DNA of 31,306 nt, taken from the IMG/VR virus record IMGVR_UViG_2585427737_000015, one strand, 5' to 3'. The DNA is from a virus. Lineage: Duplodnaviria; Heunggongvirae; Uroviricota; Caudoviricetes. Positions 1,440-20,578 of this stretch are shown piece by piece. Made by a program: the position numbers and the translations under genes. The notes under the pieces were generated by a model. That model was not told where the DNA came from. It saw only the letters and a program-made list of their open reading frames with translations, and did no database searches. Numbering within the stretch: the first letter of the stretch is position 1; every line of letters begins with the position of its first letter.

Positions 1440-1446
1440 CCGTTTC

Positions 1447-1533
1447 GCTGAAAAACATAACCCATAAAATGCTAGCTGTACCAGGAACCACCTCCTTAGC
1501 CTGTGTAATCTCCCTTACACGGGCTTATTTTTT
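1447..1533 (+). ncRNA. cyaR: CyaR (RyeE) Hfq-dependent small RNA
   Basis: Sequence GCTGAAAAACATAACCCATAAAATGCTAGCTGTACCAGGAACCACCTCCTTAGCCTGTGTAATCTCCCTTACACGGGCTTATTTTTT matches remembered E. coli CyaR; ends in a stem-loop plus U-tract. Confidence 0.85.
1507..1533. other. Prophage attachment-site core (attL or attR): 27-bp P2 att core AATCTCCCTTACACGGGCTTATTTTTT
   Basis: Exact reverse complement of the P2 core AAAAAATAAGCCCGTGTAAGGGAGATT as I recall it; lies at the 3' end of cyaR immediately before phage gene ogr, as expected for ogr-att-int topology. Confidence 0.75.
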
Positions 1534-1596
1534 ACGTACAACAAATTGAAATAAAAGGATTTATTTCTGGTCACGTCCATATATTGACCACATCGA

Positions 1597-1622
1597 CAAA
1601 AAAGCCCCTCGACTGAGGGGCT
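1597..1622 (-). terminator. Rho-independent terminator downstream of ogr
   Basis: Minus-strand hairpin GCCCCTC-AGTC-GAGGGGC (1604-1621) followed by a U-run (plus-strand A-run 1597-1603), 13 nt after the ogr stop. Confidence 0.6.
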
Positions 1623-1634
1623 TCCTGTTTGTAA

Positions 1635-1853
1635 TTACATCCACATAATTTGCTGCCCTGACGGCAACGGGTGCGGCCTTACGGCGTGGACTTCTCCCGG
1701 CTTCACGATGTATCGCTGTACCGACTCATAAGTGATGAACGTGGCGCTGCAATTCACGTTCTGGCACTGGTGATAACGCTCTTTTGTCGTGTCAGTGATA
1801 TAGCGACTTGTACGCGCATGTGCGGCATGCTGGCATAAAGGACAATGAAACAT
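1635..1853 (-). CDS. ogr: Ogr, zinc-finger late-gene transcription activator (72 aa)
   Basis: Part of ORF 1635..1916; MFHCPLCQHAAHARTSRYITDTTKERYHQCQNVNCSATF matches P2 Ogr. Start set at the internal ATG (Met22 of the track ORF) to give the 72-aa P2 length. Confidence 0.88.
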   Translation of the reverse strand: MFHCPLCQHAAHARTSRYITDTTKERYHQCQNVNCSATFITYESVQRYIVKPGEVHAVRPHPLPSGQQIMWM

Positions 1854-1934
1854 CGCGAGCACCTCTTCCGGTTTTGTTGATGGTGCCATTTTAGTTAATT
1901 TAACCTTATAAAACAAACAGATAAAATAAAAACA

Positions 1935-3098
1935 TCACTCATCATCTTCTGTTTCGTACTCCACATCAGAAAGCCTGACCTCAAGCTCCAGGGACGTCGT
2001 GAAGCCGCTATTATTCAGAAAATGTGTCACCTTAGTGATTGTCCAGTCCTGCTCGTCTATGACGCGCTTAAAGCCTGATACTTTGACCGGCGTTTCCGTG
2101 TAAATATCTGCCCGACCAGTAGCCAGACTGATGGAGAACTCCGCAACGCCCCGTTGCAGCTTATCCCACTTCGCCTGAGCGGCGCGCATGGCCTGCGCTT
2201 TCGTGGCATATACCGTGGTCAGGGCAAAAACGTTGTCAGCCTCACCTGCCATGTATTCACCTTCGCGCGCTTCCGGTACTTTTGGCGCTTTCTTCTGCCT
2301 GACCGGTTTCGCTTTCGGGTGCTCCAGTGCGCGCAGGTGTTTCTCTTTCTTTTTGCGTTTCAGTTTTACCTTCTGCTTTTGTGGCTTCGGGTCTTTGGTG
2401 TGTAACCACTTTGCCGTTACGCCGGTATAGGCTCCACGGTCAGCAATCGCAAAATGATGGCGGTCGCCGTCGCTGCGGGTTATGGTGACCTGCGGGATTT
2501 TTTTACCACTGGCCGTCACCCCCTGCCCCGCTTTGAGAAACAACAATTTTCCCATTTTTACCGACACCTCACCGCCGTTGCGTTCAGCAAGACGGGTCAG
2601 GAATTTCGCATCGGACTCCTGCGACTGGTCGATGTGCGGGATTTTAATTCCGGCCAGTGACGGAGCGACACTGGCTTCCAGCTTGTTACGACAGGCTATC
2701 GCCTCAACAATCGCACCGAGTGTGGTGTCATGCCAGGAGCCTTCCCGGCGGGAATTGAGCGTGCCACGAAAATCTGCACTCCGGGCGCGGATGGTAACCA
2801 CATCCGGCGCGCCCCGGTGTTCAACCTCATCAACGGTAAATTTCCCTTTGCATACCAGGGCAAACCCTTTCCAGCCGATATACACCGTCAGGACAGCGCC
2901 ACGAATCGGCAGCCCGACCTGCCCGTCGGCATCGTTCAGTTCAATATCAAGCTGGTCAGCCTCAAAGCCCCGGTTATCCGTCAGGGTCATGCTCATCAGA
3001 CGGTCGCTGATATTGCCGGTAATATCCCTGCTGTCGAGCATCAGCATGTAATCCGGCGTCAGCGTACTGCCTGCATCAAATGTCAGTGCATCCAGCAT
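1935..3098 (-). CDS. D: Tail protein gpD (387 aa)
   Basis: ORF track; length and position after U match P2 gpD. Confidence 0.85.
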   Translation of the reverse strand: MLDALTFDAGSTLTPDYMLMLDSRDITGNISDRLMSMTLTDNRGFEADQLDIELNDADGQVGLPIRGAVLTVYIGWKGFALVCKGKFTVDEVEHRGAPDVVTIRARSADFRGTLNSRREGSWHDTTLGAIVEAIACRNKLEASVAPSLAGIKIPHIDQSQESDAKFLTRLAERNGGEVSVKMGKLLFLKAGQGVTASGKKIPQVTITRSDGDRHHFAIADRGAYTGVTAKWLHTKDPKPQKQKVKLKRKKKEKHLRALEHPKAKPVRQKKAPKVPEAREGEYMAGEADNVFALTTVYATKAQAMRAAQAKWDKLQRGVAEFSISLATGRADIYTETPVKVSGFKRVIDEQDWTITKVTHFLNNSGFTTSLELEVRLSDVEYETEDDE

Positions 3099-3577
3099 TA
3101 TCCCGCCCCCGTCATACCCGTGAATTTAGTCGCCATACTGCCAGCCTTACCGATGAGCGATTCCGCCTGTTTACCGATATCGCCATAAAGCGCGGCCAGT
3201 GATTCATCAACGCGGGTAAGCGACAGCGTAAAATCAATTTTTCGGGGTGTGCCGTCTGCAAAGAAAATACTCCCTGTTTCACTCACCTTGCTGATGACAT
3301 ACATGCCGTAAATCATGCCGGTGCCATCCAGCAACGGCCACGCCCGGCCTTCCTCTGCCATCAGCCTGAGCGTGGTCATCGTCAGCTTTCCGCCGGTCAG
3401 CTCGGGATAAAGCACACCGGCAAGCGTGATGTTTTCCTCGCCAACACCGAGAAACTGAAAGGCATCCCGTTTACCGATACGGGAATTTGACGGCCAGCGA
3501 TAATCTGATTCACGCTGCATGGTCTGGTGTGGCAGCGTCTGGCGCATAAAAACAAACATACCTAACGCGAGCATCAT
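3098..3577 (-). CDS. U: Tail protein gpU (159 aa)
   Basis: ORF track; P2 gpU length; single-nucleotide overlap with D at 3098. Confidence 0.85.
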   Translation of the reverse strand: MMLALGMFVFMRQTLPHQTMQRESDYRWPSNSRIGKRDAFQFLGVGEENITLAGVLYPELTGGKLTMTTLRLMAEEGRAWPLLDGTGMIYGMYVISKVSETGSIFFADGTPRKIDFTLSLTRVDESLAALYGDIGKQAESLIGKAGSMATKFTGMTGAG

Positions 3578-3591
3578 TTTTCGTCACCTCC

Positions 3592-6036
3592 TTAACCGTC
3601 ATGCATCATGCTGGCACGGGCGCGCGCACGTTTATCCCGCTCGTATTTTTCGAGCGCATCCTGTAACTGGCGGTCGAGCTGTATCCCCGGCGTAGTACCG
3701 CCCGTCAGGCTGATGTGATATTCGTTTTTACTCTGGTCCACATAAGAGCGGCCAGCCGGTGCCGTAACCGGCTGATAAGCCTGATAGCCTGCATAAGAGC
3801 TGGTCGCCGGAATATAACCACCGCTGCCATACGTGGCGGCTTGAGTTCTGGCGGCGGTCTGGTCAAGTGTGTCTGACTCTTTGTTGATAACACCGAGTTT
3901 TTCCAGTACCCAGTCAATTCCGCTGCGCAGTTTGTTGAACGCATTAAGCGGCAGCATCAGCGCGTCAGCCAGTGCCTGCCCGAACATGACGCCAGTATCA
4001 CGGCAACGGTTCAGGGTGTCCTGGGTGGCTTTGACCGGGGCAATCAGGTTTTTAAACCACTGCCACGCGGCCTGTAACTTTTCGCCCAGCCAGTCAAACA
4101 CCGGCTTAAGTGGCGTGAACAGTTCCCCCACCGGCGCAAATGCCGCTTTCAGCCCTTCCATCACACCGCCAAAGAATGCGCTGACAGGCTCCCAGTATTT
4201 ACGGATAAGCAACGCCCCGGCGACAATGGCGGCCACCACGGCCACAACCGGCCAGCTAATCGCCCCGATGGCGGTCATAACAGCACTGCCAACCGTCGTG
4301 AAGACTGCCCCCATTGCGCCTGCTGCCGCGATGATGGCATTGATGCCAGTGATAACCGGCCAGGCTACAAGACCAATGGCACCGATGATGCCAATAAGCG
4401 CCAGCGCGCCACCGACAATGAGGCCGATGGTTGACGCCAGTGATTTGTTTTTCTGGATCCAGCCGTCGAGTTTTAACACATACTTTGTGGCCGTCTGCGT
4501 GAGCTTACGCAGTGCGCCTTCCTGCTGGTCAAACAGGTCAGTCCCCACCGCTTCATAAGCGGACTGAAACTCCTTAAAGTCACCGCCGAGGTTGTCCTGC
4601 ATGATTTTAACCAGCTCTTCCGTTTTACCGTCTGAGGCTTTCAGTGTAGCGGTCAGTTTGTCCAGCTTTCCGGTTGAGGCGGCAGTCATCAGCACGGCGG
4701 CGGCTGAACTGGCCTCCTCCCCGAAAATGGTTTTCATATATTCAGCCTTCTGAGACGTTCCCAGCTTGTGTTTATCAAAGCTGGCCTGAATCTCTTTCAG
4801 AATGGTGAACAACGGACGCATATTTCCCTTTTTGTCCGAGGTTTTAACGCCAAGCTCTTTGAGTGCATCCCATGCTTTTCCAGTCGGTGCCTGTAATCGG
4901 GTGACAACGGCACTGCCTCCCGTACCCGCCATTGACCCCCTAATTTTTGTCATGCAGCGCACCTGTCATGGCCGCTGCCTGTTCAAGACTTACACCTGCC
5001 GTCCTCGCAACCGGACCGAGGTAAGTCAGTGCATCACTGAGTCCCTGAAAATCAGCCGCCGACTTATTCATCGTTGCCGACAACACGTCGCCCACATGGC
5101 TGACATCATCATTTGAAAGCTGAAAGGCGGATTTCATCCCCAGCAACAGGGCGCGTTTTCTTCCATCGTGCGATGATTCGCCAGTGCCATATTCAGCGTG
5201 ACCGGCGTTGCCGCCTGAATAGCCGCAGCATCTCCACCCGCTTTCGCAATGATAATCTGCGCACCGGCCGCATCATCCGCTGAGGCGGCGGTATTGTCGC
5301 CGAGCTGGCGCGCCTGTTTGCGGAGCGCGGCCATTTCGGCGGAATCTTTTGCCACACCGAGCACGGCCTGCAATTCTGAGTTTTTCTGCGCAAACTCATA
5401 ACCGGGCATCAGCAGCTTAACTCCGGCCATCGTTCCCGCCGCCGCAATCCCCACACCGGCAGCGCCCACTGAGGCCATATTTCCGGCAAGTTCTTTTCCT
5501 GCCTGATAACGCTGTTTGACTGCGTTAAGTTTTGCCTGTTGTGCACTGACACGCGCCAGCGCGTCACGCTGCCGGTTAAGCTGTGCGGTGGTTTCACTGA
5601 TACGGTTTTTCAGTCCCTGCTCATCATGTGCAAGATTGCGGGTATTAATTCCCACAACGGCCAGTTCCCGCTGCTGGCGTTTAACGGAATCCGTCAGGCG
5701 GTTATATTTCGCCTGTAAGTCCTCCGCCGCACGCTTCGCGGATTCCAGCACTTTCGCCTGAGCACGTGTCGGACGTTCGGTGTTTTTAAACTGTGTGGCA
5801 AGGGCTTCGGCCTCCTGCCGTGCCTTTTCAAGTGCATGACCAGTCACGGCGAGCTGTGCGCTGGTCTTGCGAAATCCCTCAATACGGGATGCGTGACCGT
5901 TCAGCTCGCGCAGTGATTTTTGTGTTTCCCGGATATCCCCCGACAGCGATTTGCTCGCTGTGCGGATGGATTTAAACGGGCGGGATGCCTGGTCAACAGC
6001 CCTGAGCAATACCTGTAATTTTACATTGTTACTCAT
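3592..6036 (-). pseudogene. T: Tail tape-measure gene T, 815-codon span, interrupted by two compensating frameshifts
   Basis: Three abutting minus-strand ORFs: 5134..6036 (300 aa), 4940..5146 (68 aa, other frame), 3592..4962 (456 aa, back in the first frame). All three read as tape-measure sequence (Ala/Gly-rich hydrophobic core). Frame changes sit at a C-run (plus-strand GGG 5149-5151) and an A5 run (plus-strand TTTTT 4944-4948). Confidence 0.8.
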
Positions 6037-6456
6037 TCGTGTTTCCGCTTCGCCGGAGCGCCTTTTCGCGCCATGTGATGAGTTCGGTCAGGCTCATGGG
6101 ATACAGTTCTGATGGCGGCCAGTGAAATATCACTGCCACATCCGCCATCAGGTCATCGACCGAGAGATTTTTCGGAAACGTCACTGCACCGAGTTCGGCG
6201 ACAAAAAACCGACCACCTTACCGGCCAGCGCCACAAGGTCAGGCAGTTCCAGCGCGGCGACCTCCTGCTCGGTCAGCATCGGTGCCGTCATGCGCGGCAG
6301 CACTTTAATCAGTGCATCGACTTCGGAGTTTGCGACCGCTGCCAGACTGACACCGCGCAGCGTCCCGGCACTGGGTTTCATCAGCGTGACCTGTTCGATA
6401 ACCTGCTCACCACGTTTGACCGGATTGTCCAGGGTAATCACATTTTCTTTGTTCAT
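6029..6456 (-). CDS. E': gpE+E' tail assembly chaperone, product of programmed -1 ribosomal frameshift (142 aa)
   Basis: Slippery heptamer T-TTT-TTG on the minus strand (6202-6208). The -1 frame stays open for 57 codons (VAELGAVTFPKNLSV...WREKALRRSGNTNE) to TAA at 6029-6031, overlapping the T start ATGAGTAA; total 142 aa as for P2 E+E'. Confidence 0.7.
6181..6456 (-). CDS. E: Tail assembly chaperone gpE (91 aa)
   Basis: ORF track 6181..6456; P2 gpE length; ends VVGFLSPNSVQ. Confidence 0.85.
   Translation of the reverse strand: MNKENVITLDNPVKRGEQVIEQVTLMKPSAGTLRGVSLAAVANSEVDALIKVLPRMTAPMLTEQEVAALELPDLVALAGKVVGFLSPNSVQ
6202..6208 (-). promoter_or_regulatory. -1 programmed frameshift slippery site TTTTTTG in gene E
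   Basis: Seen directly in sequence; conserved tail-chaperone frameshift position upstream of the tape-measure gene. Confidence 0.7.
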
Positions 6457-6512
6457 GGTTTTCTCACTTCTGAATCGGGGTTAACCGGTCAGCCAGGCTG
6501 ACCGGATGAAAA

Positions 6513-7031
6513 TCACAGGCCGATATTGCGGCGGTGTTGCTCCAGCCGGTCGACGCCGTTCACCTTCTCAATCATGTTGATGGTGTCGATTTCGACCAGC
6601 TCCTTACCGTCCATCGTCAGCCGGAAATAGGTGCAGACCACGGAGATTTTCGACTCGGTGTCTTCTCCCTGTTTACCCTCGCCGGTGTCGATTTCTTTCT
6701 GACGTCCACGCATGACCACCTCGACGGCCACCGTTTCGCCGGTATCGTCGCGCTGGTAAGAGCCTGCAAAACGAATCGGGACGGCATCCACGCCGGTTGC
6801 GGCGTAAAGCTCCCAGATAACCGAATCCGGGAAGCCACCGAGCGACCACTCCATTGACAGCGCATCGTCATCAAGGCCGAGGTCTACCGGTGCGCTGCCG
6901 TTCATTCCCGCACCGCGATAGTTTTCGAGCTTACGGGTCAGTTTTGGCAGCGTGACGGACTTTGCAACGCCCTGATAGCTGTAGCCGTTCAGAAAGACGT
7001 TCATTAACTTGAGTTTGCGCGGCATTGCCAT
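6513..7031 (-). CDS. FII: Tail tube protein gpFII (172 aa)
   Basis: ORF track; P2 length and position. Confidence 0.85.
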   Translation of the reverse strand: MAMPRKLKLMNVFLNGYSYQGVAKSVTLPKLTRKLENYRGAGMNGSAPVDLGLDDDALSMEWSLGGFPDSVIWELYAATGVDAVPIRFAGSYQRDDTGETVAVEVVMRGRQKEIDTGEGKQGEDTESKISVVCTYFRLTMDGKELVEIDTINMIEKVNGVDRLEQHRRNIGL

Positions 7032-7043
7032 CGGTCAGGCTCC

Positions 7044-8234
7044 TTAATTGCTGTTAACCGAAGTGACCAGATTTGCCAGGTATTTATCGGTAATACGCTG
7101 GCGCAGGGTCAGGTTTTCGAGAGGAGGCACCGGTGTATAGTCGTAGTCGATATACAGTTTTCCGGCCTTGAGGGTTTCCGCATCGTTGGATTCTTCGCTG
7201 AACCAGCAGGTCGCATCCACGATATAGCCGTTTGTTTTCAGCTCACGGAATTTGGCATTGATGCCGTCAACGATGTCGCGAATCAGCGTTGCGGTGATGG
7301 GCTTGTCCACCGCCCACATGTGCGCCTCAGCCATCGTGTCGGCCAGCACCTGCGCGGTGCGGGTGTAGTTTTCAAAGAGGAACAGCGGGTCATCAGAGCA
7401 GGTACGGTTACCCCAGAAGCGGAAACCGTCACGGCGAATCAGCGTTGTGACGCCTGACTCATTCAGCAGGTCAGCATCGGTGCCGGACTCCTGCAAATCC
7501 CAGAATACAGATGCGCTGATGCCGGTAACACCGTTCACCCCGACGTTGGACAGCGTTTTATGCCAGCCCTGCTCCTGGTCGATTCTGGCACGCAGACCCA
7601 GCGCACGGGCGGTGGCATACGCGGTGGCGGTGGTACTGGCAACCGTATCCCATGCGAGGAAATCCGGCCAGATGACCATCAGCTCACGCTGGCTGAAATT
7701 CTGACGGTAGGCTTTCACCTCGGAAATGGTCTTACAGCCCCATGCGCTGATATATCCGAAAGCGCGCAGCTTCTGACAGACTGATGCCAGTGCAACAGCC
7801 ACCTCTTTGGTATCCAGCCCCGGCACACCAAGAATACGCGGTTTAACACCGGTTACCGACTCCGCCGCCAGCAGGGCTTTCAGTCCGGTGTACTGACCGT
7901 TTTCGTCAGTGGTGCCGATGATATTGGAAACGGTCTGCGCGAGTTTCGTTTCTTCGTCGTCGCCGGTGCCGTCTTCCACACGCACGACAACGGTGACCGG
8001 TTTTGACTGGTCAGCGATGGCCTGCAACGACGCCGCCAGCGTGCCTTTTTTACCGGCCTTTGCAATTGCGCTCTGCACATTGGTAATCAGCACAGGTTTA
8101 TTGAGGGGAAAGGTTTCCGCATCCGCATCGCTGGCCGTGCAGACCATGCCGACAATGGCAGTGGATACGGTGGAAATGACGCGGGTGCCGTCGTTAATCT
8201 CCAGCACCTGCACGCCGTGATGATAGTCACTCAT
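7044..8234 (-). CDS. FI: Contractile tail sheath protein gpFI (396 aa)
   Basis: ORF track; P2 length and position. Confidence 0.88.
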   Translation of the reverse strand: MSDYHHGVQVLEINDGTRVISTVSTAIVGMVCTASDADAETFPLNKPVLITNVQSAIAKAGKKGTLAASLQAIADQSKPVTVVVRVEDGTGDDEETKLAQTVSNIIGTTDENGQYTGLKALLAAESVTGVKPRILGVPGLDTKEVAVALASVCQKLRAFGYISAWGCKTISEVKAYRQNFSQRELMVIWPDFLAWDTVASTTATAYATARALGLRARIDQEQGWHKTLSNVGVNGVTGISASVFWDLQESGTDADLLNESGVTTLIRRDGFRFWGNRTCSDDPLFLFENYTRTAQVLADTMAEAHMWAVDKPITATLIRDIVDGINAKFRELKTNGYIVDATCWFSEESNDAETLKAGKLYIDYDYTPVPPLENLTLRQRITDKYLANLVTSVNSN

Positions 8235-8339
8235 CCGTTTAACTCCGTGGTTAATGGGTGCAACTATTTTCTGTTGTGCAGAGCATGAGACGCTATTTGA
8301 CCTGGCTGGTCAGGGGATGAAACAACAGATAAAGAAAAT

Positions 8340-8356
8340 GCGGGCAATTCGCCCGC
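8340..8356 (-). terminator. Candidate rho-independent terminator between the cargo protease gene and FI
   Basis: Hairpin GCGGGC-GAATT-GCCCGC (8340-8356) followed on the minus strand by a U-rich tract (plus-strand AAAGAAAAT 8331-8339). Confidence 0.35.
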
Positions 8357-8831
8357 CTGTCCTGATTTGTACTCACTCATTTTCCGCCTGACAATTTACA
8401 TAGCCCAAATGCTATCAAATCTGACAGTCTGCTTTGAGCGAAGAGCGGACTTGAGACTATTGTAAATGAAAACCATATAATTTTAACCGGCAGAAACACA
8501 TGAGTAATTTTAAGGCTAATTAGTTATCTGGGAGATGAGGGGCAAAGCACGATATCGTACACCAATGGAATAAGCTTATGATTAATATAAATATAAAAGG
8601 CAGAAAGCCTTCCTCAAAATGGCTTGAATCGGGTGCATCTGTCTGCGAAACGATTTTTTAGACGTTTTTATCGCTTTCAGTTCAGTTTTCCCCTCGAATC
8701 CAAGTGACAAAGCCGATTTAGTTTTCACACATCCGTACAATGTGCATCCCTCGATGAGCCTTTTCAGGCAAAGTTACGGGGATGCTTGATTCATTTAAAC
8801 TGAGTTAGTACAACTTAATTAATAATATCAT

Positions 8832-9824
8832 TTATGCTAGAGTTGAATATTCTCCATTTCCTCGGTCGGTGAGTGTTAATTCGCGGCCATTTTCTGTAAA
8901 TGTAATGGCATCCAGCAGGCTTTTTCCTGTTACAGCTATACCATATCCAAGGTTATCAATCTTTGAACTGTCCTCAGATGATATTGGTATTTGTACAAGC
9001 ATACCAACAACAAAGCCGTATTTGTTAATTATAGGGCCACCGCTATTCCCCCCCTTAACCCTAGCATTGAATAATAAAAAGTCTTGTGAATCTAAGTAAG
9101 AGTGACCAGAACCAACAATTCGCCCCTTTGACAGTCGGACAAACGAATTTATATGCGAAACGTCATATAACTTTAATGCATCAAATCCTGGAATGGGTGG
9201 AAATCCTATTGATAAAATTTCATCCAGTACCGAGGCTTTGGTTGAGACCTTAAGTGGTTGAATATTATCTTCATTCGGAATGGTTGTGAAAACTAAAGCG
9301 ATATCAATACGTTCATCGTTAGATACAAAGATTTTATGTATTGGTAAAGCCTCACCACCAGCTCTAAGTATCCTGATACTCTTCATGTCTTCAATAACAT
9401 GTCTGGCTGTAAATATCGTGTGGTTATTCCCAACAATAAAACTAGTACCAAGATCATGTGAACCATCACTTTTTTCAACAACAACAGGTAAAACGGAAGG
9501 ACTAAGGCGGTCTATGATTGACTCAAATCCATCAGCTATAAAATCATACTTTCCATATTTCGCATCTGATTCATTGAAATTCGGTGCGAAATAGCAACGG
9601 TCCAAAAGAGTATGTCCTGAAGATAATTCCATTAAAATACCTTCAGTTGCTAGCTTTTCACAATTGCGTATTAACTTCATCATATCGAGAGTATTTTCCC
9701 ACTCAGGTTTGAGACGGGTCAGGCTCTCAATTGTTTTTCTCTCTTTTACGTTATCGTTTTCCGGTTTGTCATAAAAATATTTCACTATTTCTGTTGGTGT
9801 TACATATGTTTTTTTTATAGTCAT
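8832..9824 (-). CDS. Cargo gene at the P2 Z/fun locus: N-terminal domain of unknown function fused to a trypsin-like (chymotrypsin-fold, S1/Trypsin_2-type) serine protease domain; 330 aa from ATG, 348 aa if the upstream GTG is used
   Basis: ORF 8832..9878. Motifs GTSFIVGNNHTIFTARHV (His160), ERIDIALVF (Asp192), VKGGNSGGPI (Ser279), track numbering, with triad spacing typical of DegP-like proteases. No Shine-Dalgarno before the GTG at 9878; a weak one before the ATG at 9824. AT-rich relative to the flanking phage genes. Confidence 0.7.
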   Translation of the reverse strand: MTIKKTYVTPTEIVKYFYDKPENDNVKERKTIESLTRLKPEWENTLDMMKLIRNCEKLATEGILMELSSGHTLLDRCYFAPNFNESDAKYGKYDFIADGFESIIDRLSPSVLPVVVEKSDGSHDLGTSFIVGNNHTIFTARHVIEDMKSIRILRAGGEALPIHKIFVSNDERIDIALVFTTIPNEDNIQPLKVSTKASVLDEILSIGFPPIPGFDALKLYDVSHINSFVRLSKGRIVGSGHSYLDSQDFLLFNARVKGGNSGGPIINKYGFVVGMLVQIPISSEDSSKIDNLGYGIAVTGKSLLDAITFTENGRELTLTDRGNGEYSTLA

Positions 9825-10217
9825 TTTTGTACCCGCGATGACGTTATTCCATATATTTTTCTTTGTAGAAAATATCACTATTGCTGGTAAATGTTAAGTT
9901 CAGTGCTCGCACTAAAGCTGGATGATCAACGTCGCCCTCGTATGGAAATCAGGTAAGATTCATGTCTACTTGGGGTCTAGGGTAGACAGCATAAAAACGT
10001 ACGATAGCGTTCGATTGGCTCTCCCCCCCGCCTATAAACCATGAGGTTGATAGGGTAGTATCGTTAGGCAATAGTATACATGTAAGTATCCAACCTAATT
10101 GGTCTTGAGATTTCTAACTAACGTGTCGTTATGTCCGCTCCTGGCACAGAGCGGACTGTCAGATTAGGCTTTACTCTGTTCTATAGGTATGTAAGCTCAC
10201 ACAAGAGTTCATACAAC

Positions 10218-10745
10218 TTATTGCGGCATTTCCGGCCATTCAGGATTTGCAGGATCCACACGACTGATCAGAACGCTGTAGCGTTCCCATGATTCCAGTC
10301 GGCTACGCTCCTCATCTGTTGCCATGTTCAGTCTGACCGCGCGCTCCAGCGGCAAAATCACGGATTCAGCATCTGCAAGAAGTCTGGCTTTCCGAATTTC
10401 TGCCTGCTGCTGTAATTCCTCTGCCGTATAAATGCGTTTAATCACTTTGCCGTCCTTAAACATCCAGTTCCCTGAAATGTCCGCCCGTCGGTTAGCAGTA
10501 ATATCCGCCACTTCAACAACACTTAATCCATCCGGTCTGATAGCTGTCACATCCTTTTCCACATAGTGGATGATATTATCTTTGTCGTACGCTATTTTTA
10601 TCGTGTCATCAGCAAAATACTTTTGTTCTTCGTACCAGTTCTTACCATCTTCTGAAAAAAACCAGACAACATCAAAGTCCTTTGTCAATTGATATTGTTC
10701 AACCGTTTTTGGATTACCCGCCGTAATATTTTTTAAATGCTGCAT
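10218..10745 (-). CDS. G: Tail fibre assembly protein gpG (175 aa)
   Basis: ORF track; P2 length; directly downstream of H. Confidence 0.8.
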
Positions 10746-10748
10746 AAA

Positions 10749-12998
10749 TTATACCTGCGCCACGTTATACCATGTCCCGTTAATGTATTTCTGCACCGGT
10801 CTGTAATATACGCCACCAATGTTATCGGCAGAGTTTGAGCCGGTATCCTGAACAATAATGCCGGTATATACGCAACCTGACGGAGCCTGATGCGTCCATG
10901 TAGTACCATTATTTGCTGGTTTATATGTAGATGCACCGCCCAGCCGCATGTCTCTCACATAACGTGAATCTGACTCAGTTTTGGTGTATGCACCAACATC
11001 TCCCGCTGAGGGTTTATGAGCAGTTGTATATAGTTGCGCCCATCCAGACCAGTTAGCATCTGTGGTATCTCGTCGGGAACGAATATATGCCGGAGCATGA
11101 GCACCGCTGGTTCCACTCCAGCCAATAAGTAACTCACCCTCTCCTACTGCGGTTACGCCAGTGAGATGAAGCACATTACCATAGGCTGTTGGGTAGCCAT
11201 TGTTGTATGCCTCATACATCTGAATACCTGGTGTCCCCTTTACGCTCCCACCTAATGCATTAACACGGTTTCTGGATACCAGTGTATTAATATTTATATC
11301 GGCAGAGCCATCAAATCTGACACCATTAATATTTCTTGCGTTCGCTAACTTCGTTGCTGTTGCAGCATTTCCTGAAAGGCTGGAAATAAATGGATGTGAA
11401 CAGTAATAACCACGTCCATTTTTAAAATCCAGAATAGCCTGTGCGTTCGTGCTTTCTGTAGCGGGATTAGTTGCCCCCCACTTATATGTCGTTTGACCGA
11501 CGACATAATCCTCTGTCGGAACAATAACCGTTAGCCCTTCCTCTGCAAGAATTTGTACAGGGAAAGCTCTGGCTTCAACATAAAAAACACTACATACATC
11601 ATCATCTTTCAGGCTTGTAACAATGGAATGGATTGAACGCTCATTAGTCTGATACGTCCAGAAATAACCTGCCGCATATGAACCACGATCAGTCCAGCCT
11701 CCGGGCATAACCATGCCATTAAACTCGCAGTTATTCATTACATAATCGCCGTTATAACAACCAGTGGAAATAACAACGCGGGATGCCATTTCTCCTGAAA
11801 GGCTGGCAGCACGGCGAAAGATAACGGGGTACCACTTCCCGGCAACGACATTTGCAGGGGCTGCAAACGAATACTTTCGCATTCCCTTTTTCTTATCCAC
11901 TTCACCTTTGCTGTAAACATTAATGTTACTCAGGAAGCGTTCTTTATCAGGGATATCCGCACCGTTCTGATCTTTCTGAAGACGTTTTTCAGCATTGTCA
12001 TAGGCAGACTTCACCGCCTTTGGCGTTGCAGCCTGCGTTTCAGAATCACTGTTGGTGGCGCTACTGAGCTGGACAAGACCTTTTCGCGCCGTGGTGGCAT
12101 CCTGTGCAGTGTATTTCCCGTTAGCAAGGTCATATGCTGTCTTAACCGCCTTTGGCGTTGCCGCAAGCGTTTCAGAATCGCTGTTGGTGGCGCTACTGAG
12201 CTGAACAAGGCCTTTTCGCGCTGTTGTGGCATCCTGTGCAGTGTATTTCCCGTTAGCAAGGTCATATGCTGCCTTTACCGCTTTCGGCGTTGCGGCGAGC
12301 GTTTCAGACGTGCTGTTAGTCGCACTACTGAGCTGAACAAGGCCTTTTCGCGCGGTGGTAGCGTCCTGTGCGGTATATTTCCCGTTAGCAAGGTCATATG
12401 CGGCCTTAACCGCCTTTGGCGTTGCAGCCAGTGTTTCAGACGTGCTGTTGGTCGCACTGCTTAACTGAGTAAAACCTTTTGCGGTCAGCGAGGCGTCAGG
12501 GTGACGTCGTGACTGTTCATGTTCTGCAATTTTGTCATCAACGTAATCCTGCGTTGCCATCACCGTTGTGGTGTCAATGGTCAGCTCCACTGAGGCCACA
12601 CTGCTGACGATGATGACCATGCGGCAGGTCTGCGAACGCCCTGAGCCTTCGGCAAGGGCTGGCTTATAACTTTCGGCCATGTTCGCCACGGCAATTAACG
12701 TTCCAGCATCATCGTACAGGCCAAGCTCACGCATCCAGAAACCGCCCACCTCCGGCGGAATAACCAGCTCTGCGATAATATAATTACTGTTTCGTTTGTC
12801 CTGACTGATTTTGTTCAGCGCATGTCGCCAGACTTCGTGGATAAGCCCGGTCTGTCCGGCATCCGGGACAGGCAATTTACCACCGCCATCCCCGACGGCC
12901 ATCGTGGTAATGTTGACCTTCCGCCCTCCCGGCGCGGTTGCCGCTGCCAGCTTTGCTGCACCGGCAGTAGTGATAACGGTTTTGAATTTTGTGCTCAT
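10749..12998 (-). CDS. H: Tail fibre protein gpH (749 aa) with four tandem 44-aa repeats
   Basis: ORF track; N-terminus MSTKFKTVITTAGAAKLAAA is P2 H-like; longer than P2 H because of the repeat expansion and a different C-terminal receptor-binding region. Confidence 0.85.
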   Translation of the reverse strand: MSTKFKTVITTAGAAKLAAATAPGGRKVNITTMAVGDGGGKLPVPDAGQTGLIHEVWRHALNKISQDKRNSNYIIAELVIPPEVGGFWMRELGLYDDAGTLIAVANMAESYKPALAEGSGRSQTCRMVIIVSSVASVELTIDTTTVMATQDYVDDKIAEHEQSRRHPDASLTAKGFTQLSSATNSTSETLAATPKAVKAAYDLANGKYTAQDATTARKGLVQLSSATNSTSETLAATPKAVKAAYDLANGKYTAQDATTARKGLVQLSSATNSDSETLAATPKAVKTAYDLANGKYTAQDATTARKGLVQLSSATNSDSETQAATPKAVKSAYDNAEKRLQKDQNGADIPDKERFLSNINVYSKGEVDKKKGMRKYSFAAPANVVAGKWYPVIFRRAASLSGEMASRVVISTGCYNGDYVMNNCEFNGMVMPGGWTDRGSYAAGYFWTYQTNERSIHSIVTSLKDDDVCSVFYVEARAFPVQILAEEGLTVIVPTEDYVVGQTTYKWGATNPATESTNAQAILDFKNGRGYYCSHPFISSLSGNAATATKLANARNINGVRFDGSADININTLVSRNRVNALGGSVKGTPGIQMYEAYNNGYPTAYGNVLHLTGVTAVGEGELLIGWSGTSGAHAPAYIRSRRDTTDANWSGWAQLYTTAHKPSAGDVGAYTKTESDSRYVRDMRLGGASTYKPANNGTTWTHQAPSGCVYTGIIVQDTGSNSADNIGGVYYRPVQKYINGTWYNVAQV
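11964..12464 (-). repeat. Four near-identical tandem 132-bp (44-codon) repeats inside gene H
   Basis: Protein repeat LSSATNS[TD]SET[LQ]AATPKAVK[ATS]AYDLANGKYTAQDATTARKGLVQ x4 starting near residue 179. Nucleotide repeats visible (GTTAGCAAGGTCATATGC recurs about every 132 bp). Boundaries approximate. Confidence 0.8.
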
Positions 12999-13008
12999 TA
13001 TTCCTCAC

Positions 13009-13539
13009 TTATCCGGGGTAAACCGTAATTACATCGCCGTCGTAAGCCACACCACCGGCGAACAGATAGCCGGGAATGTCCCGGGTAATGTTCAGACCAA
13101 TAAGGTGACGGCTTGCAGGTTTGGCATCAGCAATCAGCCGTTCCATTTCCTGATACATTGCCTCTGTGATACCGCTTTCCAGTACACCAATATCGAGCCG
13201 GAAGGTGCCGGGCGGGTCACTGTTTTCCCACCACTCCGTCACGTTGATGAGATAGCCGAGCGGCTCCACCACACGTCGGATTGCACCTATCGTGCCCTTA
13301 TGACAGTGGATGAAATAGGCATCGCGGATAACGGCGCGTTTTGTCGCTTCCGGCCACTTTTCATCCCACCTGTCGACCGAAAACGCCCACGCCAGCCACG
13401 GCAGCAGATTTGGCGGGCAGGTGTCCGGGTTCCACAGCTCACGAATACTGACCGGCGTTTTTTCAATTTCCGCACAGGCTTTCGCGGCAGCGACTTCAAG
13501 CGGTGATGAGCCGGTCGGCAGCAGGCGCGAATCACTCAT
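13009..13539 (-). CDS. I: Baseplate protein gpI (176 aa)
   Basis: ORF track; P2 length and order. Confidence 0.85.
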   Translation of the reverse strand: MSDSRLLPTGSSPLEVAAAKACAEIEKTPVSIRELWNPDTCPPNLLPWLAWAFSVDRWDEKWPEATKRAVIRDAYFIHCHKGTIGAIRRVVEPLGYLINVTEWWENSDPPGTFRLDIGVLESGITEAMYQEMERLIADAKPASRHLIGLNITRDIPGYLFAGGVAYDGDVITVYPG

Positions 13540-14440
13540 CCGAGCCTCCGGTCACGACGCGGTATTCGGTGCAGAAAGACGCCTGCGTACTGTTGAGCAC
13601 GATGTCGGCCAGTGGTGCAGCCAGTTCGACACGCTGCACGCCTTCCACATGCAAGGCGGCATAAATGGCAGACAGACGGATGTCGCGCCCCAGCCGGTGC
13701 TGTGCCGTGATGTACGCTTCCAGTTTTTTCACGGCGGCAGCGCGAATGGGTTCGCTTTCGGGGCCAGGGTAAAGGTAAAGCGTGGCATTTATCTGGTATT
13801 CAACGATGGCGGCAGACTGCACGGTCACACGGTCGGCCACCGGTCTGACGTCCTCGCCATTCAGGGCGTTGCGCACCACAGCCAGCAGGTCTTCAGATGC
13901 CACACCGTTATTTTCACGTGACAGCACAGAGATGGTGACACAGGCCGGAGACGGACTGGTGACAGAGATATCCGCGACACGCCCGTCGGCACTGCGACCA
14001 TGATACTGATAGGCTCCCACCGACCCGGCGACGCTTAAGCCTTCAAACGCCTGCTGAATACGCAGACGATAATCGGTGTCAGACTCCATCACTGCCGGTG
14101 TCGGCGGGATAGTCGAATCATCTGCCGGGGTGATAGTCAGGCGCGTGGTGTTGTAATTGGCACCAATCACATCAAGGTCATTACCGGCTGCCCAGGCCAG
14201 CATCACCGCCCGTGCAGCCTCATTCACACGCTGACGCCAGATAAGCTCGCGATACGCATTTTCCTCCAGCAGTTTGACGAGAGGCTCGGATTCCAGCGTC
14301 AGGGTACGGGCGACCGCCTCCTGCTGATCTTCCGGGTAAAGGGAAATCAGTGTCGCCTTGCGTTCAGCGAGAATGCTTTCAAAGTCCAGCTCCTCGACCA
14401 CATCCGGTGCGGGTAGCTGGTTCAGGTCGATAATCGGCAT
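13532..14440 (-). CDS. J: Baseplate wedge protein gpJ (302 aa)
   Basis: ORF track; P2 length and order; overlaps I by 8 nt. Confidence 0.85.
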   Translation of the reverse strand: MPIIDLNQLPAPDVVEELDFESILAERKATLISLYPEDQQEAVARTLTLESEPLVKLLEENAYRELIWRQRVNEAARAVMLAWAAGNDLDVIGANYNTTRLTITPADDSTIPPTPAVMESDTDYRLRIQQAFEGLSVAGSVGAYQYHGRSADGRVADISVTSPSPACVTISVLSRENNGVASEDLLAVVRNALNGEDVRPVADRVTVQSAAIVEYQINATLYLYPGPESEPIRAAAVKKLEAYITAQHRLGRDIRLSAIYAALHVEGVQRVELAAPLADIVLNSTQASFCTEYRVVTGGSDE

Positions 14441-14444
14441 GGTT

Positions 14445-14792
14445 TCAACTCACAGGGATGGTTAACGAAAGTGGCTGGCCGGTGTCGTTGTGCTGGCCGG
14501 TTAACGTGACCGTCATTCGCCCGTCAAAACTGCGCTCAGTGGTGACGGATGACAGGGTGACGCGGGGTTCCCATTTCAGCACCGCCATGTAACAGGCGAC
14601 CTTAATCTGCAACTCAAGCGCCGGGGTCTGCGGCTGGTCAATCATTGACGCCAGCAAGGAGCCGTAATCACGACGCATCACCCGTGAGCCGACTGGTGTG
14701 CGCAGGATATCGCCGATACTCTGGCTGATATGCTCGAGGTCAGTGACCGTCAGGCCATCACTGCGATTCATTCCGAGATAACGCGCTGTCAT
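14445..14792 (-). CDS. W: Baseplate protein gpW (115 aa)
   Basis: ORF track; P2 length and order. Confidence 0.85.
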   Translation of the reverse strand: MTARYLGMNRSDGLTVTDLEHISQSIGDILRTPVGSRVMRRDYGSLLASMIDQPQTPALELQIKVACYMAVLKWEPRVTLSSVTTERSFDGRMTVTLTGQHNDTGQPLSLTIPVS

Positions 14793-15424
14793 AGAGGACT
14801 CCCGGTTGTGCCGCCGCTGTCGCCGGGGTGTTTATGGGTATGCAGTACCTTACCGTTTGATGAGAGTTCACCGCCGGTGTGTTCAATGTTGCCGCGCATC
14901 GTCCCGCCCTTCTGCACTTCCAGCGTGCCGGTAATCAGCCTGTTGGTGCAGACCACCTCCGGGGTGTCCAGGGTGACGCGGGTTGATGCTTTCACCATGA
15001 CCACCGGCACCGTGGCAGTAACAGAATCAGAAGCCGTCACGCTGGCCGTTTTAATTCCGCTTACCGTGAGTGCACTGGTTTCGGGTTCATATTCAATCAC
15101 CGCCCCGTCAGGGAAACGGATATGCAGGGCATCCGCCGACACAGACGGCGAGGGGTTATCGCCGGAATAAATCCCCGGCAGAACGAACGCCGTGTCGAGT
15201 TCACCACCCACGGCCAGAATCAGCACCTGTTCCCCCACGGAAGGTGCCCACCATGTGCGCGAACGTCCTGCGCGATGGGTCAGCCACTGAAGCCAGTCGG
15301 TGCACATGCCGCCGGTCTGCACGCGGCAGCGACCGGCGTTAAGGTCGGTTTCGACGATAATGCCGGTGCGAATCATGTTGCGCAGTGCGCGCGCGAGTTC
15401 CTGAATATTTGCGAGAGTGTTCAT
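14789..15424 (-). CDS. V: Baseplate spike protein gpV (211 aa)
   Basis: ORF 14789..15442; start moved to the internal ATG (MNTLANIQELARAL...) to match the 211-aa P2 gpV; overlaps W by 4 nt. Confidence 0.8.
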   Translation of the reverse strand: MNTLANIQELARALRNMIRTGIIVETDLNAGRCRVQTGGMCTDWLQWLTHRAGRSRTWWAPSVGEQVLILAVGGELDTAFVLPGIYSGDNPSPSVSADALHIRFPDGAVIEYEPETSALTVSGIKTASVTASDSVTATVPVVMVKASTRVTLDTPEVVCTNRLITGTLEVQKGGTMRGNIEHTGGELSSNGKVLHTHKHPGDSGGTTGSPL

Positions 15425-15507
15425 GCGTGTGAGATTGCACAATATATAAAAGTTATGCTATCTGGATTCATTTGTAGAACTACCAGACAACATTCAAGGA
15501 GAGCGTA

Positions 15508-16293
15508 ATGGTCAGCTATAATGTGACTAATGTGTGGGGGCTAATCGTTTTTTTCCTTTGTAGCTTTGCAGTATTAGCATTTTTTAGCTTTGGTAAAAGT
15601 AACCTTATGAGGCTTATTGCACATTATTTCAATTTTGGATATTCAGACAAAAAATTAAAAAGACTTGACCGCGAGTGGCGCGACATTCAACTATTTAAAA
15701 TAATTAACGGAATCAATGTATCAGGCATTGAAAATGTGAGAATGATACAGCAGGGACTGATTGATGGAAAACTAAAAACATCGTATTTTTTCCTTACTCG
15801 CATCTGGGGTGACATAACAAAACCACCACACATAATTAAAACAACAATTGTAATTCTGGCCAGTATTATTTATATTCTCTTCGCATGTTATATACACAAC
15901 AAACAATCCGCTATAGTAAGAGATGCCATAGGCATACCATATAAAAATATGATGTACTATGTTTATAGTGACAAAGTTCTTTTATCCTTCAAAAATAAAG
16001 CAGTTGAATTTAATAAAACTTATAGCCTTGCCGATTGCAAGAGACTGCAAAACGTATTTATAAAAGACACACTTCCTGAAATCGCCTGCAATAAGCTCTT
16101 ACAGCTAAACGAGGAGGACTCCGAATGGTTAAGCCAGGAGATTAAAGATAATAACAGTCACAAAAAAGCATTATTAATACTATCCCTCGTCTATTTCACT
16201 TCAGGTCTGGTTATATTCCTGTCATATACAAAATTCTTTTACGCCAATAAGAAGGTTTTAGAATACAAAGCATCAAATAAAAATCACTCATAA
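15508..16293 (+). CDS. Cargo gene at the P2 orf30 locus: AT-rich predicted integral membrane protein (261 aa, about 3 transmembrane segments), function unknown
   Basis: ORF track; Shine-Dalgarno AGGAG 8 nt before the ATG; hydrophobic stretches at about residues 9-29, 113-133 and 221-241; opposite strand to the flanking late genes; low G+C by eye. Confidence 0.65.
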   Translation: MVSYNVTNVWGLIVFFLCSFAVLAFFSFGKSNLMRLIAHYFNFGYSDKKLKRLDREWRDIQLFKIINGINVSGIENVRMIQQGLIDGKLKTSYFFLTRIWGDITKPPHIIKTTIVILASIIYILFACYIHNKQSAIVRDAIGIPYKNMMYYVYSDKVLLSFKNKAVEFNKTYSLADCKRLQNVFIKDTLPEIACNKLLQLNEEDSEWLSQEIKDNNSHKKALLILSLVYFTSGLVIFLSYTKFFYANKKVLEYKASNKNHS

Positions 16294-16301
16294 ACCTCTA
16301 A

Positions 16302-16332
16302 ACATTGAGCGCCCAGCATGGCCGCTCAATGT
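16302..16332. terminator. Hairpin between convergent genes (cargo membrane protein and S), probable bidirectional terminator
   Basis: Perfect 10-bp stem ACATTGAGCG / CGCTCAATGT (16302-16311 and 16323-16332) with an 11-nt loop; followed by a T-containing tract on the plus side. Confidence 0.45.
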
Positions 16333-16364
16333 TTAATTGCGCATCAGCCTCTGCCTGGATAAAA

Positions 16365-16817
16365 CTAACGCTCAAGGTGAGCCAGGATAATCTCTTCAAT
16401 CATCTGCACATCCTCACAGGTAAAGCCGAGCAGAGGACGCGCCGGATAATCAATTTTCTTACCGTCTTTCCGGGTTTCTTCCGACAGACCGAACTGATGC
16501 ACACTGGCTATTTTCGGTGACTTCCCGCCGTAAAACTCCATTGATGCCTGTTCAGGGCTGGCGCGGATATGCAAAAAACGACTGGTGATAAGTTTCGCAA
16601 ACATTTTTCGCTTAACGCGACCGGTCTTTTTTCTGGCGCTCTGCTGCTGGCGTGGTGCGTAGGGTGTGCCGTCCGGGGCTTTCTGTGCCATCACCCGGCG
16701 CTGCTGACTCTGCCGCAGACGTTTCGCCAGTTCGGCGCTCAGTCGCCGACGCCCTGACGGTGACAACGATTCAATCAGTCCGGTCAGCCGGTCTTCAAAA
16801 CGCTTAAACTCATTCAT
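16365..16817 (-). CDS. S: Tail completion protein gpS (150 aa)
   Basis: ORF track; P2 length and order. Confidence 0.85.
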   Translation of the reverse strand: MNEFKRFEDRLTGLIESLSPSGRRRLSAELAKRLRQSQQRRVMAQKAPDGTPYAPRQQQSARKKTGRVKRKMFAKLITSRFLHIRASPEQASMEFYGGKSPKIASVHQFGLSEETRKDGKKIDYPARPLLGFTCEDVQMIEEIILAHLER

Positions 16818-17277
16818 CCCACTTGCTCACCAGTTCGCCATTGATATAAAGCTCCACCGGGCGGGTGACCGGCTCCGGCGGCGTGGGTTCCGGGATATTC
16901 TTCACATGCAGTGCGCCGTCCACCTCACTGACCAGCGTGCGCTCGGTCAGCATCAGGCTGATGCTGATATCAAAGCTGCTGTCATTATTGATGTCTGCAT
17001 AAAACGTGAAGCCCTTTTTCTGACCTGCGTCGGTGGTCATGATGTCGGGCTGATTTACCCGCAGCCACGCCAGCACCGGCACGATGAGCAGGTCAAAATC
17101 ACCGGTAAAGTCGGTCACAATGACATTGAGCGTGTAACGCTTTTCGAATGACAACGACGCCGCCAGCGTGGAGGCAATACTCCCGTGATCCACGAATATC
17201 CGCAGCATATCGGGGTTAGTTTTCAGCACCGTGACGGCATCAGTCAGCGCCCTGCGCAGGCTGTCGGGTTTGAGCAT
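16810..17277 (-). CDS. R: Tail completion protein gpR (155 aa)
   Basis: ORF track; P2 length and order. Confidence 0.85.
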   Translation of the reverse strand: MLKPDSLRRALTDAVTVLKTNPDMLRIFVDHGSIASTLAASLSFEKRYTLNVIVTDFTGDFDLLIVPVLAWLRVNQPDIMTTDAGQKKGFTFYADINNDSSFDISISLMLTERTLVSEVDGALHVKNIPEPTPPEPVTRPVELYINGELVSKWDE

Positions 17278-17530
17278 CGTTTTCGTCCTGACAGTGTTTA
17301 ATCATTTTTACCTGGCTGGCACAGCGCGCCAGCGCGTTCTCAAGCTGCCGGATATCGGCACTTAAATCACCGTTCGTCTCCGGGTCGCTGCCCGGCATCG
17401 GGCAAAGACTCACTTTCGGGCAGGCGTTGTGGACAATCACTGGCGTCGGTGCAGGCGGGGCGCTGGTGCAACCGGCGCACAGCATCAGGCAGGTCAGCGC
17501 CGTACCAGCGGCGAAAATCTTCGTTTTCAT
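17240..17530 (-). CDS. lysC: LysC, Rz1-like outer-membrane lipoprotein spanin (96 aa), out of frame and partly embedded in lysB
   Basis: Internal Met of ORF 17240..17647 gives MKTKIFAAGTALTCLMLCAGC with a lipobox (LCAGC) and a Pro-rich mature part; 96 aa as in P2. Confidence 0.7.
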   Translation of the reverse strand: MKTKIFAAGTALTCLMLCAGCTSAPPAPTPVIVHNACPKVSLCPMPGSDPETNGDLSADIRQLENALARCASQVKMIKHCQDENDAQTRQPAQGAD

Positions 17531-17810
17531 TAAGTAACCTCGTGATGGTTTTCTCGCGCTGTGCTTCACGCTTCGCGGCGTTCTCCAGTTCCTGACGCAG
17601 TACCACCTGCGCCAGCTCGTTTTTGTCTGCTCTGGTGAGGGCAACATGAAGCTGATTTTTCAGCATGGTGATGGTCGTCTGCTGCCCGCTGGCGACGTTG
17701 TTCGCCCTGTCCAGCGAGGCGCGCAGGCTGGCATTTTTGTGTTTCACCAGAAACAGACCAGCCACCGCCAGTGATAACAACACAACCAGCACAATCATCA
17801 GCCTTGACAT
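17367..17810 (-). CDS. lysB: LysB, Rz-like inner-membrane spanin (147 aa)
   Basis: ORF track; N-terminal transmembrane helix then a charged coiled-coil-like region; position between lysA and R. Confidence 0.75.
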   Translation of the reverse strand: MSRLMIVLVVLLSLAVAGLFLVKHKNASLRASLDRANNVASGQQTTITMLKNQLHVALTRADKNELAQVVLRQELENAAKREAQREKTITRLLNENEDFRRWYGADLPDAVRRLHQRPACTDASDCPQRLPESESLPDAGQRPGDER

Positions 17811-18223
17811 GGTTCCCGCCCCTCAAAACACTGACGGCAGGCCGTACGTATCAGCCGGAAGAACACCGACGCCACGAGATAAATCAGCGCGGTAAAAATC
17901 CACCCGGCAGCGACCAGCGAGATAAATGTCGCCACCATCACCACCAGAGCCGCCGCCCGTCTGCGCCACGGCACCGGCTGCAAAAACAGCGACGTGACAA
18001 TCTTCACGGCCAGCGATTCCGGTGGCAGCTCCCGCCCGTAGCGTTCAAGTACATACTCCGTGGCATACACGCCGACACCACCGGCAACCACACAGATAAC
18101 CGTCACCAGAATCGCCCAGGTGGCGACAAAACTGACGGCCACGCTCTGCGGGTAAATCAGGGACAGTGCCAGCATCAGCGCCAGCGACACGTTCAGCATC
18201 AGTGAAAGGGATAATTTCTTCAT
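17798..18223 (-). CDS. lysA: LysA, membrane protein of the lysis cassette (141 aa)
   Basis: ORF track; multiple hydrophobic segments; P2 length and order. Confidence 0.75.
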   Translation of the reverse strand: MKKLSLSLMLNVSLALMLALSLIYPQSVAVSFVATWAILVTVICVVAGGVGVYATEYVLERYGRELPPESLAVKIVTSLFLQPVPWRRRAAALVVMVATFISLVAAGWIFTALIYLVASVFFRLIRTACRQCFEGREPCQG

Positions 18224-18237
18224 GGTGTTTACTCCGT

Positions 18238-19016: not shown

Positions 19017-19019
19017 GCG

Positions 19020-19732: not shown

Positions 19733-19831
19733 GACTACCTCTGAAAAGTCGGGCGGTGGACGCCGGTGCAGTGTCAGGTGATTCACCCTCACTGACCGGC
19801 GTGCCGCCCTGGCGCGGGGCGCATTCGGTTG

Positions 19832-20575: not shown

Positions 20576-20578
20576 CGG

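Follow-up and report, generated by a model that had tools for sequence, protein, structure and literature searches.

The frameshifted tape-measure gene in a draft record of a P2-like prophage is very likely a chimeric consensus of two sibling prophages

The tape-measure protein gpT of phage P2 (NP_046782.1, 815 aa) and its Peduovirus homologues are encoded by genes that are intact at 2448 nt in all relatives examined. The same operon holds a programmed -1 frameshift in E/E', the tail assembly chaperone, and its slippery T-run is conserved in all relatives. Recombination between co-resident prophages is known in E. coli, as in the lambdoid prophages of O157 and in mosaic P2-like phages, and real events leave a few long tracts that are joined in register. 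A known class of short-read assembly error is the collapsed or chimeric consensus of near-identical repeats.

The T gene described here has the same place as P2 T and is homologous to gpT over residues 1-815 (88% to P2 gpT, and 97% nucleotide identity to P2DC1), but it lacks 3 nt and is broken up into three ORFs. It resembles E/E' in its operon and in being a frame change in a tail gene. Unlike the conserved T-run of E/E', the T lesions are found in this record alone and lack any conserved signal. As in prophage recombination, there are two related prophages per chromosome in the lineage and a hybrid product; however, the parent also switches about 80 times, in patches as short as 1-10 nt, and the junctions are out of register. 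The likeness to repeat-collapse errors extends to two copies of 97-99% identity in the lineage, the specific parts of both copies within one contig, little private variation, indels at places where the copies align with gaps, and products unique to one assembly. The difference from such errors is that this contig spans the whole ~24 kb repeat, at which nine other assemblies break.

The window, which is the whole 31,306-nt stretch of DNA analysed here, corresponds to the last 31.3 kb of draft contig JORD01000151.1 (assembly GCA_000713025.1, E. coli 6-319-05_S1_C2), to which it is 100% identical across the 12,036 nt compared. By coordinate arithmetic, the window ends 1 nt short of the end of this 123,467-nt contig, within the multi-copy element ISEc12, and the 513-aa ORF at its right end is the ISEc12 (IS21 family) transposase. 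At the other end are yegQ (1-1362) and CyaR (1445-1530). Three minus-strand ORFs make up gene T (6036-3592) of a P2-like prophage, as seen from the ORF list and the sequence:

3592-6036, minus strand: T as recorded, 2445 nt, which is 3 nt short of every intact relative (2448 nt)
5134-6036, minus strand: T piece 1, a 300-aa ORF with a premature stop at 5134, deposited as KEM14873.1
4940-5137, minus strand: T piece 2, the middle of the gene in another frame, deposited as the 65-aa protein KEM14872.1 (ORF 5146-4940)
3592-4932, minus strand: T piece 3, the C-terminal 446 aa with the first frame restored, deposited as KEM14871.1 (ORF 4962-3592)

An earlier note on this DNA had reported that T is interrupted twice and that translation stops at 5134 after 300 aa, and both the ORF list and the sequence agree. 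Its span of exactly 815 codons holds only with the stop codon counted (2445 nt, 814 sense codons), which leaves the gene one codon short, as intact T in every relative examined is 2448 nt in length and encodes 815 aa plus a stop. The switch of frame that it described in the middle of the gene is also present, with the out-of-frame stretch being about 68 codons in length rather than about 65. The two frameshifts are not a compensating pair, as had been proposed, in the sense of +1/-1. Alignment places a loss of 1 nt near 5150 and of 2 nt near 4947, for a net -3 in T, and one codon is lost. Correspondingly, relatives have 2604 nt against a 2601-nt query (window 3500-6100), and 404 nt around the lesions as compared to 401 nt in the window.

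All three segments are genuine tape-measure sequence, as had been claimed, and all align to P2-family gpT. In tblastn, P2 gpT residues 1-815 align to 6036-3595 through the three pieces, and each piece matches PF10145. The T region is matched by 92 P2-like phage records, with query coverage of at least 80% in 91 of these. T is located between E/E' and U, as in P2, in the order FI, FII, E, E', T, U, D, ogr. The gene is a full-length P2-family tape-measure homologue in its F-operon position that lacks a single uninterrupted 815-codon ORF, and we judge this lack to be an artefact of the database record.

The rest of the late region is in good order. A tblastn search with all P2 proteins found the P2 late genes from Q to ogr other than T to be intact at 94-100% protein identity, the exceptions to this range being the tail-fibre assembly protein G (75%) and the tail fibre H, which matches partly. 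The early genes int, C, cox, and B are missing, and A is reduced to residues 476-751. We considered an assembly with errors throughout, or a prophage in decay, as a source of the lesions and rejected both as a general explanation, as every late gene besides T is intact in this search.

Eight complete ETEC genomes (120899, 602354, 103605, 204446, 504237, ETEC-2265, TW10722, and record LR883006) are 100% identical to the yegQ flank of the window. All eight hold two separate P2-like prophages, ~2.1 Mb apart, and T is intact in each. In strain 120899 the first of these, p1, is located at yegQ, the same site as in the window, and the second, p2, between fieF and cpxP; T is intact at 2448 nt in both. 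The two prophages have 97-99% identity over most late genes. They differ in cargo, with an AAA-ATPase gene beyond Q in p1, and an S1-peptidase gene and orf30 in p2. Z/fun-locus genes belong to p1, and DUF2975 and Panacea cargo to p2. The p1 and p2 stretches that we compared have identical scores across all eight complete genomes in the tail genes and nearly identical ones in the head region.

The window contains segments that are specific to each of the two prophages:

1-2808, unstranded: p1-specific yegQ, cyaR, att, ogr, and most of D; 2808/2808 identical to p1 of ETEC 120899
8442-11949, unstranded: p2-specific S1-peptidase cargo and C-terminal part of H; p2-only over 8442-10132 (1690/1691) and 10971-11949 (979/979)
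15425-16362, unstranded: p2-specific orf30 segment; 938/938 identical to p2 and absent from p1
25772-29345, unstranded: p1-specific left end with the AAA_13 cargo gene and the A-gene fragment; identity to p1

The p2-only stretches within 8442-11949 are absent from p1, and the intervening 10133-10970 aligns to p1 at 94%. At the left end, the AAA_13 cargo gene (25772-28515) is identical to p1 at 2744/2744 positions and absent from p2, and the A-gene fragment is identical to p1 at 829/830. Each copy-specific segment has 0-1 differences from strain 120899, which add up to about 2 over roughly 10 kb. As p1-only and p2-only segments are both present at ~100% identity, we infer from sequence that the source strain, 6-319-05_S1_C2, carries both prophages.

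Between the copy-specific segments lies ~18.7 kb of shared sequence, in which 222 sites of the window agree with p1 and 446 with p2. Where all three sequences align, the parent state of the window flips between p1-type and p2-type ~80 times, in patches down to 1-10 nt. A match to p1 or p2 at every variable site was dropped as lone evidence for this mosaic, as such a match is trivial at two-state sites. For that reason we used the count of private sites instead, calibrated on P2 and P2DC1. Private variation of the window amounts to 4 SNPs and 3 deleted bases over the ~18.7 kb, whereas the same test yielded 380 private sites in P2 and 193 in P2DC1. By this measure, the window holds almost no information beyond the p1 and p2 of this lineage. 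The mosaic of its tail or head genes is not reproduced in any complete E. coli genome. The best complete-genome matches are the same eight ETEC genomes, at 97.1% for p1 and 99.1% for p2 (98.8% in ETEC-2265).

T itself is mosaic. Its centre (about 5584-4749) is p2-type, with small p1-type patches on either side of a divergent core, and the lesions and their surroundings are as follows:

5149-5152, minus strand: lesion 1, -1 nt; window AACGCGC/CCTG, p1 AACGCCGCCCTG, p2 AACGCGCAACTG
4944-4950, minus strand: lesion 2, -2 nt; window GACA/AAAATTA/GGGGG, p1 GATGCAAAAATTACCGG, p2 GACAATAACATCAGGGGG
4961-5111, minus strand: divergent core of T, at which p1 and p2 differ at ~35% of sites; the window is purely p2-type here (57/57 informative sites)
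5117-5173, minus strand: mixed zone upstream of the core; p1-type at 5169-5173, 5150, and 5117-5136, p2-type at 5151-5152 and 5143-5146
4918-4959, minus strand: mixed zone downstream of the core; p1-type at 4959, 4942-4945, and 4918 amid p2-type sites

In the upstream mixed zone, the parent alternates every few bases. The core is in a shifted frame only because of the lesions that flank it.

With ordinary gap costs, no more than four compensating gap pairs arise when p1 and p2 T are aligned, and these fall at T positions 884/887 (1 nt), 936/939, 950/962-963, and 1089-1090/1093-1095 (2 nt). The lesions lie at T positions ~887 (-1) and ~1090 (-2), so that two of the four gap pairs match them in both position and size. 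At lesion 1, the switch from p2 to p1 falls between the halves of the 1-nt pair (884/887). At lesion 2, it falls inside the 2-nt pair (1089-1090/1093-1095), after which the sequence is p2-type again. The window takes the p2 gap state at the first half of each pair and the p1 gap state at the second, by which exactly 1 and 2 bases are lost. The junction strings in the window are GAAAACGCGCCCTGTTGCTGGGGATGAAATCC and CTGCATGACAAAAATTAGGGGGTCAATGG, and the corresponding parental strings are GAAAACGCCGCCCTGCTGATGGGG and GATGCAAAAATTACCGG in p1 and GAAAACGCGCAACTGTTGCTGGGG and GACAATAACATCAGGGGG in p2.

The whole 2445-nt T can be derived column by column from the gapped alignment of p1 and p2 without a single novel base. 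The derivation has 224 informative columns, 67 taken from p1 and 157 from p2. It depends on gap placement: of five scoring schemes, two give it exactly, and these are the ones in which the small gap pairs are placed. From the ungapped alignment of p1 and p2, T is not derivable, and the failure occurs at column 888, which is lesion 1. The natural T alleles of P2DC1, Wphi, and P2 are not derivable either, with failure within the first 6-164 columns. This analysis demonstrates the mosaic, its parents, and the exact derivation of both lesions.

These results bear on the mechanism that had first been suggested, slips in the homopolymer runs C3 (5149-5151) and A5 (4944-4948) of a natural T allele, whether by mutation or by sequencing error. 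Short runs are indeed present at both sites, the C3 run at 5151-5149 and the A5 run at 4948-4944, precisely as had been noted, and T is the sole late gene affected. A count of run lengths, however, found the C3 run (GCCCTG; GCCGCCCTG in p1) and the A5 run (GCAAAAATTA) each to be equal in length in the window and in the intact p1 allele, the source of these few bases, and no allele has a longer run at either site. The bases missing at both lesions fall beside the runs and not inside them, and lesion 2 loses 2 nt. The substitutions that flank both sites all match the other prophage copy. Gapped patterns for an intact local version had zero matches in any collection. We consider homopolymer slips to be very unlikely.

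A natural third T allele that differs from the recorded one only in run length (GAAAACGCGCCCCTGTTGCTGGGGATGAAATCC and its equivalent at lesion 2) was sought in the same way and not found in any of the collections searched. The junction sequences and the intact version of the mosaic were absent from ~1,900 T homologues in 5,426 complete E. coli genomes. Short queries around the lesions had best identities of 91% and 93%, and every match was 1 or 2 nt longer than the window. No match was found in IMG/VR to patterns fitting either the lesions or this mosaic in an intact form, in the GTDB species-representative genomes to the lesion-1 pattern, or in metagenome contigs to an exact string across a neighbouring p1/p2 junction.

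The protein products are likewise confined to this record. Among ~15 billion proteins, the three T fragments are found on just one public contig, and the N, M, and Q proteins of the window (capsid, small terminase, and portal) occur on JORD01000151.1 only. In comparison, the products of pure parental tracts (D, J, and S) occur on 53-158 contigs. A search for the same lesion in independent isolates or assemblies found none, the exact products being on one contig.

This distribution also bears on programmed recoding, by which two ribosomal frame shifts would give full-length gpT. There is a precedent in the operon, as a programmed frameshift annotated in P2 lies ~170 nt upstream of the T start codon (T6G, 6203-6208). 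Against such recoding, T is uninterrupted in every relative, including the ~1,900 homologues, and the interrupted configuration is found on one draft contig only. Two shifts would be needed, first -1 and then -2 (or +1), and no conservation supports them. The absence of the configuration from ~1,900 homologues effectively refutes programmed recoding, to which we give almost no credence.

The T frameshifts are very likely the chimeric consensus of two co-resident sibling prophages and not the result of mutation. Short-read assembly would have threaded one contig through the two-copy repeat, with a consensus that flips between p1 and p2. Owing to the ~35% divergence at the centre of T, the copies would be alignable there only with small compensating gaps. 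A consensus that took the p2 gap state and then the p1 gap state across a gap pair would lose 1 nt at lesion 1 or 2 nt at lesion 2. The ~80 switches, some 1-10 nt apart, together with the 0-1 differences in each copy-specific segment, leave no time for many independent events. Some switches are closer together than any k-mer size, which speaks for a consensus called from an alignment rather than for graph traversal. Accordingly, a mosaic at the level of de Bruijn bubbles was rejected, as a k-mer graph cannot give switches 1-10 nt apart, and either alignment consensus or real repair is needed.

The repair in question would be ectopic gene conversion, in which the lesions are real and the prophage at yegQ was rewritten from the co-resident prophage at fieF. 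Patchy repair of a misaligned heteroduplex at the centre of T would have deleted 1 and 2 nt, and the outcome would be a hybrid prophage whose tape-measure gene is dead. Both parents are present in the lineage, and the lesions fall at parent switches in the gapped register that a heteroduplex would also prefer, such that repair could give the same sequence. The contig is also uninterrupted through the prophage, as if the strain had one hybrid copy, and a possible ISEc12 insertion in gene A of the same prophage would fit a decaying element. Gene conversion, however, needs ~80 parent switches, including patches of 1-10 nt, in very little elapsed time, the shortness of the time following from copy-specific segments that differ from 120899 at 0-1 positions. 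No such exchange is visible in the stretches compared across the eight complete genomes of the lineage, and the chimeric N, M, Q, and T products are on no other public contig. Conversion would in addition have to cross ~35% divergence and three non-homologous cargo islands. Homologous strand exchange is not expected across either. We regard gene conversion as unlikely, though less so than homopolymer slips, and infer that the mixing took place in the assembler rather than in the cell.

The behaviour of other assemblies at this repeat provides a comparison. Nine other short-read assemblies leave the p2 cargo island on an orphan contig, 2.1-3.7 kb in length, with shared P2 genes at its ends. Only JORD01000151.1 threads through the p2 cargo island, an orphan contig being the usual outcome for such a repeat. 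A search for sibling colonies by the exact S1-peptidase product returned only unrelated short contigs.

Celera Assembler and MaSuRCA both call consensus from overlapping reads. The style of the strain and protein names suggests, as a guess, that the assembly of 6-319-05_S1_C2 came from the same sequencing centre as two E. coli studies from the Institute for Genome Sciences (University of Maryland), published in 2015 and 2018 (PMC4462620, PMC6060285). Both used 100-bp Illumina reads, assembled with Celera Assembler in the one (PMC4462620) and MaSuRCA in the other (PMC6060285), and they illustrate the period and not the method of this assembly. The strain name and accession were not found in the searchable literature, and a multi-colony ETEC paper has different isolate names.

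The recorded frameshifts are true of the database entry and most probably not of the bacterium. In the strain itself there are most probably two ordinary P2-like prophages, with T intact in both, and neither a tailless phage nor recoding. The earlier note had read the lesions as recent ones that abolish a functional tail. This is unlikely, as the lesions lie at p1/p2 switches and T mixes two intact copies base for base. It was right to weigh an artefact as the alternative, although the kind of artefact is a chimeric consensus over a two-copy repeat and not a homopolymer miscall. Should gene conversion prove true after all, it would offer co-resident sibling prophages a natural way to inactivate one another's tail genes, which would be of modest interest.

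For genomes that contain sibling prophages, a chimeric consensus suggests a simple diagnostic: whether a gene that seems frameshifted can be derived column by column from the gapped alignment of the intact copies. In the present record, the contig misplaces p2 cargo genes at the yegQ locus. KEM14871-KEM14873 are probably chimeric proteins that no cell contains. The contig's capsid (KEM14897.1), portal (KEM14900.1), and small-terminase (WP_032222171.1) proteins are apparently also among these probable chimeras.

The small terminase, major capsid and portal genes of the window (M, N and Q) are all in frame and lie in the zone of finest alternation between p1 and p2, the P2-like prophages found at yegQ and fieF, respectively, in complete ETEC genomes. 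The exact N, Q and M proteins (KEM14897.1, KEM14900.1, and WP_032222171.1, respectively) are each confined, among ~15 billion proteins, to a single contig, which is the window's own. Like the product of tape-measure gene T, these three proteins are probably chimeric.

Features of the window
1445–1530, plus strand: CyaR/RyeE sRNA gene (Rfam, 100.7 bits)
6203–6208, minus strand: slippery T6G run of E/E' (E/E' overlap, 6181–6184)
8832–9878, minus strand: trypsin-like S1 peptidase gene, at the Z/fun cargo position
19832–25545: genes M, N, and Q, all in frame
26049–28265, plus strand: AAA_13 ATPase gene (738 amino acids), at the P2 old/tin cargo position
29354–28527: fragment of replication gene A, from residue 476 onward only, within the region 28516–31306

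Across the blocks that could be aligned three ways (about 1547–8441, 11950–15424, and 16363–25771), the window is unlike both p1 and p2 of the complete ETEC strain 120899 at only five positions (2865, 14658, 23671, 24910, and 25701). These five may be true single-nucleotide polymorphisms of the strain or else consensus errors.

A programmed –1 frameshift producing E+E' is annotated in P2 and Wphi. The T6G run of this frameshift is intact in the window, and the start codon of T is located ~170 nucleotides downstream. The slippery run has no relation to the –1 and –2 nucleotide deletions that split T.

Another truncated tape-measure product, 336 amino acids in length (e.g., ELF45482.1 of E. coli KTE6), was noted as protein P0003 in the cluster of the window's 5134–6036 product. 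It is present on 247 contigs, one of which is a 5.2-Mb chromosome. Unlike the T lesion of the window, this product recurs across assemblies, and it may represent a real, inherited truncation of T in another lineage.

At one end of the prophage, the CyaR/RyeE gene separates it from yegQ. The window becomes homologous to p2 from position 1547, and therefore the 3' end of cyaR adjoins the prophage. At the other end, the gene A fragment is adjoined in the deposited sequence by ISEc12 (IS21 family), which extends up to the end of the contig; the boundary between A and ISEc12 may reflect either a genuine insertion or a further mis-join. In contrast, p1 of strain 120899 has a whole A gene and carries IS100 in its integrase gene instead.

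The AAA_13 ATPase matches the PADLOC candidate defence family PDC-S06 over its full length (E = 5e-254), and its C-terminus gives a weak PrrC-like match; this cargo does not differ from that of p1 in complete ETEC genomes. The S1 peptidase weakly matches protease domains in the defence proteins RT-Protease_XI, LmuA, and HamA, and its gene occurs in nine other assemblies on an orphan contig of 2.1–3.7 kb. Lastly, part of tail-fibre gene H (11991–12483) aligns with itself at an offset of ~132 nucleotides (secondary BLAST hits, 84–89% identity), which indicates that the shaft of the fibre contains a tandem repeat.
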